Origin: Thermoplasmata archaeon
Lineage (GTDB): Archaea > Thermoplasmatota > Thermoplasmata > RBG-16-68-12 > JAFNFQ01
DNA: 24,000 nt
NCBI GenBank assembly: GCA_041489255.1
Contig: JBGPQV010000002.1
Span: 150,447-174,446, forward strand
Direction of reading: 5' to 3'
The translations under genes and the position numbers were made by a program. Shown piece by piece: positions 2,744-23,347 of the stretch; the first letter of the stretch is position 1, and each line of letters starts with the position of its first letter. Under the pieces are notes generated by a model that was not told where the DNA came from, made no database searches, and was given only the letters and a program-made list of their open reading frames with translations.

Positions 2744-3324
2744 CAGGCGGGTTCTGAGGGTTTTGGCGGCATTGTCCTTAGGCGGATCTTGTTCGTCATG
2801 CCGTGCCTTTCGCGGGTCACGATCTCCTTGCCCTCGAGCTTGTCCAGCAGGCGCGTGACCTTCGCCTTGGAGAACGAGCCAGACGCCACGATGTCCTTCT
2901 GGAGCATCTCTCCGCCCCTTTCGCGGATGAGCGCGTAGAGGCGCTTCTCGTCTTCATCCAGCATCTTGAAGAACGCCGCCTCTTGATTGCGGGACACATG
3001 CGGAGCTTCCTGTTCGGGAACTGAAGGGACGGCGGACGAGACCGGATAAGTTGGGGCCATCGTTCCGACGGCTGGAGCCTGATTGATCGTGGGGACATCC
3101 TGGCGGGAAGACATCAGGAAGAAGACCACGGCTACCAAGACGACTCCCAATAGCAGGGTGACCGCAAGCCAGCCAATGCTGAAGCTTCCTCCCCCGCCGC
3201 CCATCATGCCTCCACCCATCATCCCGTTTGACATGAACATCGCGCCGGCGGAGCCTGCGAGAAGGAGTGCCACGAACACCGCCAGTATCACAAGGACAAC
3301 GGTCATCTCTTGGCTTCTCGCCAT
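2743..3324 (-). CDS. Membrane-anchored winged-helix transcriptional regulator (COG2512-like) with Met/Gly-rich loop between two TM helices
   Basis: Predicted TM1 is VVLVILAVFVALLLAGSAGA and TM2 is IGWLAVTLLLGVVLVAVVFFL, with the loop MFMSNGMMGGGMMGGGGGSFS between them. The C-terminus EKRLYALIRERGGEMLQKDIVASGSFSKAKVTRLLDKLEGKEIVTRERHGMTNKIRL is a MarR/TrmB-like wHTH. An alternative ATG lies at 3306. Confidence 0.75.
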   Translation of the reverse strand: MARSQEMTVVLVILAVFVALLLAGSAGAMFMSNGMMGGGMMGGGGGSFSIGWLAVTLLLGVVLVAVVFFLMSSRQDVPTINQAPAVGTMAPTYPVSSAVPSVPEQEAPHVSRNQEAAFFKMLDEDEKRLYALIRERGGEMLQKDIVASGSFSKAKVTRLLDKLEGKEIVTRERHGMTNKIRLRTMPPKPSEPA

Positions 3325-3406
3325 CTGCTTTCGATCTCCTGCCGAGTGAGTGACCTACTCAACGGCATTGTTTAATGTTTGGCAATTCTTGGCGGGATAA
3401 GCCATT

Positions 3407-9043: not shown

Positions 9044-10729
<1,686 letters not shown>

Positions 10730-12035: not shown

Positions 12036-12364
12036 GCAAGAGTCATGGCGCTCTGGGCGCAGGACTCCTTCGCTGCGAATCGGCTTTGGCGAGTGCGACC
12101 GAGAAAGCTCCCTCGACCACTTTCACCTGACAATGTCCGATTTTTCCCAAATCGTTATCGCGGATGATATCCGCGCCGAAACCGGCTTGAGGAGTGGGTT
12201 GACCTTGGGTCTGCTATGGCGGTCGTTTTCACAGCCGGGGGAATAGCTGCGTCCTGCCATCTCGCTCCGCGGCATGGCGGTGACCGGCCTTGATGCCCCT
12301 CACCAAGCGAGGGGTGAACAAGGTGCTCGGCTGCAGCCTGTTTCGAACGGGGGAAGAGGAGCCG

Positions 12365-12736
12365 ATGACCGTCGTGTCCGAGATACTCAGACGGAGCGGC
12401 GTGAAGGTCGGGAAGGTCGATAAGAAGAGCAACCAAATCACGGGGAGAATCGGGTCGTTCTTCGACCCGTACGCCTGCAAGGTTACCGCCCACATATTCA
12501 ATCAGAAGTCGATAAGCCTCATCGAACTCGTCTGCGAGGGAGCGTGGGGTAGACCGGGGGAGAAGGTTCTGTCCGACTACCTCAAGATCCTCTGTCGCAA
12601 CTTCAATGACCTTTCGCTCTCCGATATCGAGAATACGATCGACTGGGGGTGGAGCGGTTCGAAGGGGGAGGGATCCCACAAGGCTCGCACACAAGCCGTC
12701 GCGCTCATCAAGAACATCGAGGCTGAAATGAAGTAG
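12365..12736 (+). CDS. Hypothetical protein, likely co-transcribed partner of the downstream GTPase
   Basis: GAGGAG precedes the ATG at 12365. Composition is balanced and third positions are GC-rich, like real genes here. The stop lies 21 nt before the GTPase ATG. I recognise no family or motif. Confidence 0.5.
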   Translation: MTVVSEILRRSGVKVGKVDKKSNQITGRIGSFFDPYACKVTAHIFNQKSISLIELVCEGAWGRPGEKVLSDYLKILCRNFNDLSLSDIENTIDWGWSGSKGEGSHKARTQAVALIKNIEAEMK

Positions 12737-12757
12737 AAACGGGGCTGCATACCCTTG

Positions 12758-13570
12758 ATGGAGAAAACGGGCAAGACCAAGTTCAAGATTTGCATCGTCG
12801 GGGAAAAGTCGGTGGGCAAGACGTCGCTTCTCGAGAGGTATATCTTCGGCACCTTTGGCGGTGACTCAGGGGCCTCTTCCGGCACGAAGATGTCTTCGGT
12901 GAGTTCAAGGAACATCGAGGCGGGCGGCAAGGTGGTCGACGTTGATGTGGCCTTCTTCGACCTCATGGGTGCGACGGCGGTGAGGGACTCCTTCAAGGAA
13001 GTGTTGTTCTGGGGCGCGCATGGTTTCCTGGCGGTGGCGGACATGACGAGGTCGGACACGATCCGCGCTCTCCCTGCCTGGGTGAAGGTCGTGAGATCCG
13101 TTGCGGGGGAGATCCCGTTCCAAGTGCTCCTCAATAAAGCCGACCTGGCACTTGGAGGCGAATTAAATCTTGAGGACATTGGCTGGTTAAATTCACGGTT
13201 CCCCAAGACGCCGTATCATCTAGTCAGCGCAAGAAGCAGCATCGGAGTCGAAGACGGCATCGACGCGCTCGTAAAGGACGTCATCGAAAGCATCCTCGCA
13301 AAAGCCGCCGTGAAGAAGGAGACACCCGTTCGAGTCGGCGAGATCAGCAGGAAGATTCTGTCCTTCGCAAAGAGGAGGAGCCCCATAGGCGTCCCCAAGA
13401 AAGACCTCCTGATGGTCATCAAGAACGTGGACCACGATTCCTTGATGGCGGAGATTGAAGAACTCAAGGAGAACGGGCTGGTGACGATAGAGTTGACCGG
13501 CCCGGCGTCATTCTTGGTCAAGATCACCAAGGAAGGCGAGAAGCAGCTCGAGCTGACGGCGGCTCACTGA
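12758..13570 (+). CDS. Ras-superfamily small GTPase fused to C-terminal winged-helix domain
   Basis: All GTPase motifs are present: G1 GEKSVGKT, G3 DLMG, G4 NKAD and G5 SAR. The C-terminal approximately 85 aa (ISRKILSFAKRRSPIGVPKKDLLMVIKNVDHDSLMAEIEELKENGLVTIELTGPASFLVKITKEGEKQLE) fits a MarR-like wHTH pattern. Confidence 0.8.
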   Translation: MEKTGKTKFKICIVGEKSVGKTSLLERYIFGTFGGDSGASSGTKMSSVSSRNIEAGGKVVDVDVAFFDLMGATAVRDSFKEVLFWGAHGFLAVADMTRSDTIRALPAWVKVVRSVAGEIPFQVLLNKADLALGGELNLEDIGWLNSRFPKTPYHLVSARSSIGVEDGIDALVKDVIESILAKAAVKKETPVRVGEISRKILSFAKRRSPIGVPKKDLLMVIKNVDHDSLMAEIEELKENGLVTIELTGPASFLVKITKEGEKQLELTAAH

Positions 13571-21076: not shown

Positions 21077-22840
21077 TCAGCTTGTGTTGAATTCCTGACT
21101 GTACGTTGCGTAGCCCCAGAGCACGCTGATTTCGACCTTGTAGTTCGTCTGCGGATTCCCGTGGAGTATGAAATAATCGCCAGAAGAAAGGAATCCATTT
21201 GCATCGCCGTCTATGAAGGTCAGGTTCCCGCCTGGGAAGTAGTAGATAGATCCGTTGACCAAGGCGCGGCTATCGAGGACCAGGGTCGAGTTTTCCCGGA
21301 GGGACACGTTGAGATGCTTGCTCAGGTTGAGCTCCTGATGCCACCAGGGCACGCTCACGTTTATCGTCAATGGCATCTGCGTATCTTTGGCTGTGAGACG
21401 AACACGAGGAATGTTGCCAATTATATGGCCATAGCCGGCAATCCATGTTGCGTCAATCGTCCATCCTCCATTGAGCTGGATTCCGAAAGATATTCCCGTC
21501 CTGTTTGCGATGCCGCCGATCGTGAAGCGGTCGCCTGCGTTGAGCATCCCGTTTCCATCAACGTCAGAGTAGCCTATCGTGACTCCATCAGTTGTAGTCA
21601 CGGGCAAATCCGCCATCCGGCCCTGGAGTATTGTATCGTTTCCCGCCGAGTGAAAAGTGAAATTCATCTGGGAGAGCGGGAAATCTCCGGTGTGTCCGTG
21701 CTGCACTACTTCAATCGTCGAGGTGACATTCAGTCCGATTTGATCTCCAACGTGGCGAAGGTGCAATGTGCTGGAGTCACCATCAATGACCAATTGATAT
21801 GGACCACGGTCATGATTCAGGACATACTTGATTCCGCAAATGTAGCCACAGTCTCTCATGCCGCCGCCAAACGACCATAGATAGGTCTGAAACCCGAGGC
21901 CGCTCATCTCGTCAAGATGCAAGCTGAACTGATCGCCGTCGTCGAGCAGGTTGTTGCCATTCAAGTCGAAATAGCGTATCGTCCCGTTCCGAGATGTCCC
22001 GTTCTTCAATGATTGCATCTCGTCCACGACTGGCATGCCCCAATATCCGCCTGACAACGATACATATTCGATAGCCGCGATTATGATCCAAGTGGCAGCC
22101 GAATCGATCAATGGGGCAGCCGAATCGATCAATGGTATGCCCTGTAGATACGCCGGGATTTCATAGACTGCCTTGGTCAATGTGACATTCACAAGATTTA
22201 TGGGGTATCCATCGCCGTCTCGCGTGAGCACCGTATAGGACATCCATCCCGTCTCGTTCCGTTCCCCAGGCATGAGGTAAACCCCCATCACATATGAGAC
22301 CGCATCCATGACTACTCCAATCGACTGGAAGACCATTGGAGTCGGACAAATGAATTCCTCTGCCCAGACGCCTTGCACGTTGTTGAAATCATGGGGCGTG
22401 AAATGGAGGGTCGTTCTGAATCGTTCTCCGACGGCGTACTGCTTATTGATATCTCCGCGGACTAGACCAGAATCATTGCCACATAAAGCGAATTGACCGT
22501 TGAGCTGCACGTACACCTCGCGGCCATAGGTCGTGTTGAAGTAGTTGACTTGCGTGATTATCCCTTCAACGTCTCTCACCTCACCGAGCTTCCAGTGCTC
22601 ATGGAGGATAACCTCGTCCGCAGTGTATGGTCTGTAATAGATATGCCATAGGCCGTAGGATGCACTCGACACGATGGTGAATGCGACTAGAACGGCAATG
22701 TCCGCGCCCCACCGTCCAATCCGCAACCTATTCTTCACCAGATACGATGATAACCAATCGTCACCCTTAAAACTATTCTTGGGGCGAATGGCAGCCGTGT
22801 CAAGAATGATTATCACGGAAGACAACGCGGGAGCAACCAT
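21077..22840 (-). CDS. Large membrane-anchored/secreted surface protein, sequon-rich, with three repeated D-x-[DN]-G-N-x-x-L-x-x-G-D-x-F motifs
   Basis: Has hydrophobic N-terminal segments and about 17 N-x-S/T sequons. The motifs are DLNGNNLLDDGDQF (21926-21967), DVDGNGMLNAGDRF (21524-21565) and DGDANGFLSSGDYF (21170-21211). The region is AT-richer than its flanks. I prefer the ATG at 22840 over the TTG at 22858. Confidence 0.65.
   Translation of the reverse strand: MVAPALSSVIIILDTAAIRPKNSFKGDDWLSSYLVKNRLRIGRWGADIAVLVAFTIVSSASYGLWHIYYRPYTADEVILHEHWKLGEVRDVEGIITQVNYFNTTYGREVYVQLNGQFALCGNDSGLVRGDINKQYAVGERFRTTLHFTPHDFNNVQGVWAEEFICPTPMVFQSIGVVMDAVSYVMGVYLMPGERNETGWMSYTVLTRDGDGYPINLVNVTLTKAVYEIPAYLQGIPLIDSAAPLIDSAATWIIIAAIEYVSLSGGYWGMPVVDEMQSLKNGTSRNGTIRYFDLNGNNLLDDGDQFSLHLDEMSGLGFQTYLWSFGGGMRDCGYICGIKYVLNHDRGPYQLVIDGDSSTLHLRHVGDQIGLNVTSTIEVVQHGHTGDFPLSQMNFTFHSAGNDTILQGRMADLPVTTTDGVTIGYSDVDGNGMLNAGDRFTIGGIANRTGISFGIQLNGGWTIDATWIAGYGHIIGNIPRVRLTAKDTQMPLTINVSVPWWHQELNLSKHLNVSLRENSTLVLDSRALVNGSIYYFPGGNLTFIDGDANGFLSSGDYFILHGNPQTNYKVEISVLWGYATYSQEFNTS
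22094..22135. repeat. Perfect 2 x 21-bp tandem duplication inside the surface-protein gene
   Basis: GGCAGCCGAATCGATCAATGG appears twice back to back (22094-22114 and 22115-22135). It is in frame and encodes PLIDSAA-PLIDSAA. Confidence 0.95.
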
Positions 22841-22876: not shown

Positions 22877-23347
22877 ATGAGAAAAGAGACGCGCCACAAG
22901 AGATGCATGCAGAGCTGCGTCCCCTATCCGTTTGAAACGCTGAGACGCTGCTACGTCACGTTGTTCGGCGGCGTCTCACCCGACCTGCAGGCATATCAGG
23001 TCGGAATCAATAGAGAGGCGCTCGCCGGCAACACAGAACTGGACGCCCTTGACAGGGTGGCGGTTGGTATCCTAGGCGAAGGTCGCACGCGCCCCTTCTT
23101 CATGGAGAGGCTCTACGACGTCACGGCTCTCGACGCCACGACGCCAGACGCGATCGCGAAATCGGCATTCGGCGAGGCGGTGTTCTCGGTCGAGCTGGAC
23201 ATGGGAAGAAGGCCGTTCGACTCCCTCAGGGAAGGCCGTATGATCGTCCTCAGCGCGGTCTTGGCCGACCCTGAGGCGGAAGGCATGGGATGGCGGCTGG
23301 ACCTGCTCGCCAAGGCCCTCCGCGAACTCCGCATACTCGAATCCTAG
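22877..23347 (+). CDS. Hypothetical protein
   Basis: A 156-aa ORF with GC-rich third positions and balanced composition. I recognise no motif. An alternative start (MQSCV) lies at 22907. Confidence 0.4.
   Translation: MRKETRHKRCMQSCVPYPFETLRRCYVTLFGGVSPDLQAYQVGINREALAGNTELDALDRVAVGILGEGRTRPFFMERLYDVTALDATTPDAIAKSAFGEAVFSVELDMGRRPFDSLREGRMIVLSAVLADPEAEGMGWRLDLLAKALRELRILES

Follow-up and report, generated by a model that had tools for sequence, protein, structure and literature searches.

A Ras-like GTPase fused to a winged helix, and its candidate partner gene, in an order of uncultured Thermoplasmata

Discussion of Ras-like switches and their dedicated regulators usually treats them as a speciality of eukaryotes and Asgard archaea. 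From other archaea, single Rab-like proteins, one copy per genome, have been described in the Thermoplasmatales and Aciduliprofundum (Surkont and Pereira-Leal 2016, PMC4915359), and the small GTPases of prokaryotes have been classified under the name 'Rup' (Wuichet and Sogaard-Andersen 2014, PMC4316618). Here we analyze a stretch of 24 000 nucleotides (nt), called the window throughout, which is contig C2:150447-174446 of a Thermoplasmata genome (G000; 2.74 Mb, 96% complete). Two genes at 12293-13570 (+) are our subject: one for a 147-residue protein of an undescribed family, called ORF147 after its open reading frame (ORF), and directly downstream one for a 270-residue small GTPase that ends in a predicted winged helix (wH), called GTPase-wH. 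The account we favour, and to which we give about an even chance, is that they form a two-gene operon for a GTP switch and an accessory protein.

The GTPase-wH gene (12758-13570, +) is identified by its ORF, Pfam and PDB profile matches, homologues and an AlphaFold2 model. Its product is a Ras/Rab/Roc-like small GTPase with all the nucleotide-binding motifs: GEKSVGKT at residues 15-22 (G1, 12800-12823), DLMG at 68-71 (G3, 12959-12970) followed by AT to residue 73, NKAD at 126-129 (G4, 13133-13144) and SAR at 157-159 (G5, 13226-13234). These are the motifs that a first-pass annotation of the same DNA had listed. In the alignment of 40 GTPase-wH sequences K10, G15, G20-K21-T22, D68, G71, N126-K127, D129 and S157-A158 are invariant. 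Both leading Pfam matches exceed their curated cut-offs, Roc with E 9.9e-16 and 58.5 bits (cut-off 27) and Ras with E 1.8e-13 and 50.8 bits (cut-off 21.6), and among solved structures the closest are Rab43 and Rab21 (E about 2e-11). A TTG at 12755, three bases before the ATG at 12758, is an alternative start.

Foldseek and the alignment place the G domain at residues 1-188 (12758-13321), with an extended last helix (164-188) included. The AlphaFold2 model, for which 40 homologues served as input, has a mean predicted local distance difference test score (pLDDT) of 81 and a predicted template modelling score (pTM) of 0.62. Its G domain matches Rab1, Rab11 and Rab7 in the PDB over about 175 columns, with target-normalised template modelling (TM) scores of 0.80-0.87. 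In switch I (G2) the family mostly reads GTLG where Rab has TIGVDF, and the window protein has a Ser there (ASSGTKM). A prenylatable C-terminal Cys was looked for in the 270-residue protein and is absent; the chain ends ...LELTAAH behind the folded wH.

The catalytic Gln that should follow DxxG is Ala72 in the window protein, so the first-pass annotation was right that it is missing, and the loss is a trait of a whole clade. The 54 GTPase-wH genes of the order split in two: group 1 reads DxMG and then Glu, or Ala in the window's clade, and group 2 reads DxxGQ. Glu or Ala follows DxMG in all group 1 loci examined, while three more distant members of the alignment read DLMGQ. In the G-domain tree group 1 is a clade (support 100/99) on a long stem, and group 2 is nested among the ordinary small GTPases of the genome. 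From tree and alignment together, the group 1-wide loss is an old, fixed trait, and as such it supports the proposed dependence on a partner for hydrolysis. Some recognised Ras subfamilies also lack the catalytic Gln; Ala72 therefore bears on mechanism and not on membership in the superfamily.

The upstream gene is longer than was first thought. The first-pass annotation had correctly placed its end 21 nt before the GTPase ATG (ORF147 stops at 12736), but gave it a length of 124 residues. An upstream start at 12293 adds 24 N-terminal residues that carry LGCSLFRTG.EEP, kept in 12 of 12 close homologues, and strand 1 of the predicted fold (residues 10-18) falls within them. Given this motif and strand, the start is almost certainly ATG 12293 (147 residues) and not 12365 (123 residues). 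ORF147 thus occupies 12293-12736 (+).

ORF147 matched nothing in Pfam or NCBIfam. Its AlphaFold2 model (pLDDT 68; core 70-89) has the order strand-helix-four strands-helix, then a poorly predicted tail. Foldseek places it nearest to the BamC N-domain, KA1 domains (MARK, SAD, Chk1, the C-terminus of AMPK alpha), the SOS2 C-terminal domain and START/Bet v1 (E 1.7e-4 to 1e-2), with TM scores of 0.38-0.44 when normalised to the query and 0.5-0.6 when normalised to the target, at 5-14% identity and on a model of pLDDT 68. On this model ORF147 would be a helix-grip-like alpha+beta domain, and family membership beyond that cannot be claimed. A Roadblock or longin identity was rejected, there being no family match and a different order of strands and helices; the earlier impression that the protein does not look like Roadblock is borne out. 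A profile search of 1.84 billion proteins gave a family of 26 cluster representatives at E<=1e-3, and no paralogue was found in the window's own genome. One match, the 2604-residue P0077, was discarded as a tandem-repeat protein that does not match the wider profile.

Gene order speaks for a link between ORF147 and the GTPase. In the window and at loci L001, L002/3, L007, L171, L172 and, on the minus strand, L165, a homologue of ORF147 either ends 4-21 nt before a group 1 GTPase-wH gene or overlaps it. In L171 and L172, where the GTPase is 56% and 53% identical to that of the window, homologues of 148 and 147 residues end 17 and 10 nt before it; the minus-strand copy in L165 is truncated and directly precedes its GTPase-wH. 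The plus strand of L165 carries an ORF147 paralogue of 26% identity that ends 13 nt before a gene for a 186-residue GTPase with no wH, and in L167 a homologue of 31% identity stands before a GTPase gene that runs off the contig. Among all loci inspected, a GTPase gene directly downstream of the ORF147 homologue is missing only in L169, a contig of 2.6 kb, and in L168, which is cut. Every ORF147 locus with enough flank has a Ras-like GTPase gene there, across 26-100% identity. An earlier reading of ours, that ORF147 is confined to a close clade in which its homologues sit beside GTPases at least 60% identical, was revised after the profile search and these new contexts.

The adjacency also recurs on contigs outside the ferredoxin synteny of the window's clade (L171, L165, L167). 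Because it outlasts sequence divergence, loss of synteny and a change in the type of GTPase, it suggests a functional link with the G domain, and we consider ORF147 a likely functional partner of the GTPase. The first-pass annotation had proposed a comparison of gene neighbourhoods, and this gives a divided answer: relatives of ORF147 recur before GTPase genes, and the distant GTPase-wH loci have neighbours other than ORF147 and none in common, since all-against-all BLAST of their flanking ORFs clusters only the GTPase and its shadow frames.

Some of the contigs merit separate description. On the Joint Genome Institute metagenome contig L165 (1-8208), with L166, four genes for Ras-like GTPases and two of the ORF147 family lie within 8 kb; in L166 a truncated ORF147 homologue abuts an integrase (rve) gene, and so an insertion may have cut it. 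At L170 the GTPase-wH P0016 lacks an upstream ORF147, and a frame over its 5′ end (2957-3397, +) matches the ORF147 profile faintly (E 1.5e-4) and may be a decayed remnant. In L171 (4198-6489, -), about 700 nt past the end of the group 1 GTPase-wH gene and on the opposite strand, lie two Roadblock/LC7 genes along with genes of the receiver-V4R and receiver types.

The first-pass annotation had read the 270-residue protein as a Ras-like GTPase fused to a MarR-like winged helix. The fusion holds, on AlphaFold2 topology and profiles. The C-terminal domain covers residues 195-270 (13340-13567, +), and residues 195-269 are modelled in the order helix, short strand, helix, helix, strand, strand, helix, the order of a winged helix; block pLDDT is 84-90. 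That the region should fold in this way was a point on which the earlier reading had been made to depend. The individual elements are helices 195-206, 214-220 and 226-238 and strands 242-248 and 251-256. Between the G domain and the wH runs a linker of low confidence, at about residues 189-194; together with the pTM of 0.62 it indicates that the two domains are probably not rigidly packed.

The epithet MarR-like found no such support. A profile built from the aligned tails of 16 proteins, compared with solved structures, finds QsrR/HxlR, PadR-like, MarR, YodB, AspA and RosR at E 1.5e-3 to 0.1. Matches over H2-H3-wing are QsrR (4hqe), Smu.1604c (3l9f), YodB (5hs7) and AspA (5k1y), at E 1.5e-3 to 0.03. 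Pfam matches of the tails are weak and spread over winged-helix families (best E 3.8e-4 over 16 members, B-block_TFIIIC), and every listed Pfam match of the window's own wH falls below its cut-off. Foldseek of the whole model against the PDB and a viral library returned only Rab-like G-domain matches of at most 190 columns and is uninformative for the wH. The fold assignment thus draws on modelled topology and on consistent marginal profile similarity; with matches this marginal, a MarR family claim is not supported.

Helix 3, which aligns with the DNA-reading helix of QsrR and MarR, is HDSLMAEIEELKE with a charge of -4, and it is acidic throughout the family, including the paralogues and the stand-alone homologue. 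The net charge of the wH averages about +1 (range -3 to +4 over 40 members). Judged by these residues the wH surface is a poor one for reading DNA. Given the acidic helix, and a simpler candidate binder of the promoter described below, DNA binding by the fusion is unlikely.

The architecture is not a chance ORF, as it recurs in about 40 full-length homologues (266-307 residues, 32-96% identity), all in Thermoplasmatota metagenome bins. Its wH profile matches in 69 of the 79 genomes of the window's order, and across the phylum, in an even sample of 300 genomes, it gave only five weak matches. By these searches GTPase-wH is a family not described before and restricted to a single order of uncultured Thermoplasmata. 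The window's genome has three copies of the wH: the fusion in the window, a second full-length GTPase-wH on contig 28 (C28:13134-13943; 269 residues, reading DIVGQ) and a stand-alone gene. The stand-alone homologue, of about 100 residues, lies directly behind an adenylate kinase gene (L105:3256-3498, +; C24:29424-29666 of G000). Such stand-alone genes are found across the order, and in family f52 they are the sole form found.

The fusion sits within a larger expansion. Ras-family genes number 19 in the window's genome and Roadblock/LC7 genes 8, and each of the order's 29 genomes with a completeness of at least 90% has 7-20 Ras-family matches (E<=1e-10). A phylum-wide sample gave a Ras-family match in 45 of 201 genomes, mostly a single one, with 5 to 17 or more in a few lineages. 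The general statement that Ras-like GTPases are rare outside Asgard archaea, made in the first-pass annotation, therefore fails for this lineage. The literature we searched holds no description of the GTPase-wH fusion or of a GTPase expansion in Thermoplasmatota.

Further GTPase genes of this genome are arranged in tandem (C4:111988-114321 and C7:60660-61846) or carry other tails. A 267-residue protein reading WDIMGD (L106:3001-3801, +; C2:228409-229212) has a tail that resembles another helix-turn-helix. Two GTPases of 276 and 280 residues reading WDVLGQ (L107:3001-3828, +, and L108:3001-3840, -; C10:49346 and C3:39395) have in common an unannotated tail of about 100 residues. Pfam covers none of these three tails. 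A divergent GTPase (Ras E 6e-11) adjoins two Roadblock/LC7 genes at C4:150878-152046 (-; L096, L097), and this cluster, separate from the locus studied here, looks like a classical module of the MglA-MglB type.

Within the 257-nt spacer before ORF147 only 44 nt (12150-12193, +) are strongly conserved across the window, L007, L001 and L002. This promoter- or operator-like block, about 100 nt from the ORF147 start, contains an imperfect dyad GTTATC-N6-GATATC (12154-12171), CGAAAC and a TATA-like CTTGAGG (12187-12193). The arms of the dyad are conserved and its spacer varies; the general form is GTTATC-N6-GATAWC. The same dyad arrangement precedes the ORF147 homologues in L171, L172, L165 (a perfect GTTATC-N6-GATAAC) and L169, and in L165 the dyad also precedes the ORF147 paralogue paired with the wH-less GTPase. 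Among GTPase-wH genes that lack ORF147, 22 of 43, of both groups, have a single TGATAA 13-17 nt before the TATA box, against 6 of 81 wH-less GTPase genes (Fisher 7e-8, a value overstated by kinship among the sequences). Since the promoters with and without it are alike, ORF147 seems to stand between the GTPase gene and an old promoter of that gene.

Taken whole, the block occurs once in the genome. The dyad class TTATC-N6-GATAA occurs seven times against 0.4 times in shuffles, and dyads stand before two other small-GTPase genes of the genome. Other natures for the block were considered and rejected: an RNA family (no Rfam match beyond a chance-level E of 0.08), a micro-ORF (both strands are open, the ends of the frames are not conserved and the substitutions have no period of three) and a repeat (single occurrence in the genome). 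Nor is TGATAA the general TATA box of this genome, whose promoter-enriched hexamers are TAAATA, TTTATA and TTTAAA; intergenic TGATAA occurs 108 times against 84 expected. A scan for sigma-70 promoters and terminators is uninformative for an archaeon.

The more probable reader of the dyad is a conserved ArsR-type regulator of the HTH_20 family. Its gene on C15 of the genome (13235-13597; L155) is preceded by two TGATAATCA sites and followed by a dyad (sites spanning C15:13125-13656), and a paralogue on C6 (43351-43677) has two dyads 51 and 141 nt upstream (region C6:43351-43842). Such sites around a regulator's own gene are the usual signature of autoregulation. All 79 genomes of the order have the regulator, with 79-90% identity and 3-7 paralogues in each. 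It probably governs a GATAA-dyad regulon, in which we infer that the operon is joined by other small-GTPase genes and by TPR, GAF-PAS, DUF835, Alba and SLOG genes. At about 22745-22790 of the window a TGATAACC box is followed by a TATA-like TTAAAA, 129 nt before a 156-residue ORF (22877-23347, +) that has no Pfam match and may be another member of the regulon.

In the account we favour, the G domain would bind GTP and hydrolyse it poorly when alone, and poor intrinsic hydrolysis would make it a slow switch, put into one state or the other by factors acting in trans. The protein of the ORF147 family would act on the G domain, either as a regulator resembling a GTPase-activating protein (GAP), a guanine nucleotide exchange factor (GEF) or a guanine nucleotide dissociation inhibitor (GDI), or as an effector; the family also accompanies a wH-less GTPase. 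The wH, joined to the G domain in the model via the extended last helix and a flexible linker, would be an output or adaptor module, for which protein binding or self-association is more probable than DNA reading. The operon would be transcribed from the promoter with the GATAA-type dyad, probably bound by the ArsR-type regulator. A bolder form of the proposal is that the ORF147 family is a new class of small-GTPase regulator (GAP-, GEF- or GDI-like), with a helix-grip/KA1-like fold, for Gln-less Rab-like GTPases of non-Asgard archaea. This form is tentative, and we think it rather more doubtful than the operon itself.

Several observations weigh against the favoured account. Confidence in the ORF147 model is moderate (pLDDT 68), its structural matches are weak (TM about 0.4), and across the family alignment no Arg, Asn or Gln is invariant, as would be expected of a catalytic finger. 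Adjacency within the clade that has ferredoxin, ORF147 and GTPase genes in a row could partly be inherited synteny, and the TGATAA enrichment before GTPase-wH genes leaves room for DNA binding by the wH. The ORF147 family was found in 4 of 79 genomes of the order against 69 of 79 for GTPase-wH, so ORF147 is not a general requirement of GTPase-wH proteins. The suggestion in the first-pass annotation that the upstream gene is the partner accordingly stands for its position, kept before Ras-like GTPase genes, and not for conservation with the whole GTPase family.

This sparse distribution would fit a reading of ORF147 as a mere neighbour, a lineage-specific newcomer between the GTPase gene and an old promoter, with GTPase-wH acting alone or with partners encoded elsewhere, for instance the eight Roadblock/LC7 proteins. 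ORF147 is absent from 75 of the 79 genomes, the distant loci conserve no neighbour, at other loci a promoter block like that of ORF147 lies directly ahead of GTPase-wH, and Roadblock genes are at hand, eight in the window's genome and two, with a receiver-V4R gene, near the GTPase of L171. A chance neighbour would not readily account for tight spacing or overlap down to 26% identity, for adjacency that recurs away from the ferredoxin synteny and with a different kind of GTPase, or for the fact that only short or end-cut contigs lack the downstream GTPase. We regard this explanation as unlikely. The promoter raises another: that GTPase-wH is a GTP-gated transcription factor, whose wH recognises the GATAA-type dyad or box of its own and other promoters while ORF147 tunes the switch. 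A nucleotide-dependent dimer of the G domain would bring two wH domains onto half-sites 11 bp apart, centre to centre. Fold and marginal profiles do point to regulators of the MarR/PadR/HxlR type, the TGATAA box favours genes with the wH over those without it, a dyad with conserved arms and variable spacer precedes all ORF147 operons, and dyads occur before two other small-GTPase genes of the genome. The acidity of helix 3 across the family, with a domain net charge of about +1, argues against it. So does the same motif around two HTH_20 paralogues (two TGATAATCA sites and a dyad at C15:13125-13641, two dyads at C6), a regulator found throughout the order, and so does the dyad before the ORF147 paralogue whose GTPase has no wH. 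We consider a GTP-gated factor improbable.

A dimer could matter in a different way, if the wH were a minimal scaffold of the COR-A type in a Roco-like device, a GTPase activated by dimerisation and needing neither GAP nor GEF. Roc is the best Pfam match of the G domain, Roco-type proteins combine loss of the catalytic Gln with a domain directly after the G domain, and the stand-alone wH homologue conserved in the order could pair with the fused wH. No COR family matches at E<=1, however, no Foldseek match covers both domains (at most 190 columns), and the pTM of 0.62 and the poorly predicted linker suggest that the domains are independent of each other; we think such a device very improbable. 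The two-gene operon for a GTP switch and an accessory protein remains the account we favour.

The finding is real, and GTPase-wH is a variant, not described before and restricted to one lineage, of a kind of protein that is known. New at the locus are the probable partner family, the split between groups with and without the Gln, and the promoter dyad. The analysis shows an order of Thermoplasmata with 7-20 Ras-like GTPases in each genome, of which several carry additional fused domains. If ORF147 does regulate the GTPase, small-GTPase biology would gain a new regulator fold, and there would be a handle on the role of such switches in archaea that have no endomembranes; the window pair would then be its simplest testable example, with the winged helix as a built-in output. 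The wH, if it binds protein, would exemplify an effector domain built permanently into a Ras-like switch; if it binds DNA, there would be a new kind of GTP-gated regulator. Both proteins are small (147 and 270 residues) and soluble-looking, which makes the pair unusually easy to test. Two genes upstream, at 9044-10729 (+), is a gene for a class Ic aminoacyl-tRNA synthetase of 561 residues, syntenic in L001 and L002.

Comparison with known systems sets the pair apart from each. With the Roc-COR proteins of the Roco family GTPase-wH has in common a Roc-like G domain directly followed by another domain and a non-canonical hydrolysis machinery, but it lacks a COR match, repeats or a kinase and is only 270 residues long. 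Its wH has the topology of MarR, PadR and HxlR regulators; it differs in falling below the Pfam cut-offs, in its acidic recognition helix, in having no dimerisation helices and in being fused to a GTPase. ORF147 has the antiparallel sheet packed by helices of KA1, BamC-N and START/Bet v1, in the order strand-helix-four strands-helix, at 5-14% identity and with TM 0.4-0.6 on a model of pLDDT 68. We know of no small-GTPase regulator with any of these folds. The archaeal Rab-like or 'Rup' proteins (such as the Thorarchaeota Rab, PDB 7ezb) have the same Ras fold and G1, G3, G4 and G5 motifs as the window protein, whose matches go to Rab, and likewise no C-terminal prenylation Cys. Those described are single-domain proteins, whereas that of the window has an 85-residue wH, no catalytic Gln and a genome with 19 paralogues. 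Compared with MglA-MglB, ORF147 has no Roadblock match and another order of strands and helices, and the window G3 is DLMG, not of the MglA type; what the two systems share is a small GTPase with a small partner gene directly upstream and, presumably also at our locus, co-transcription of the two and hydrolysis that depends on that partner.

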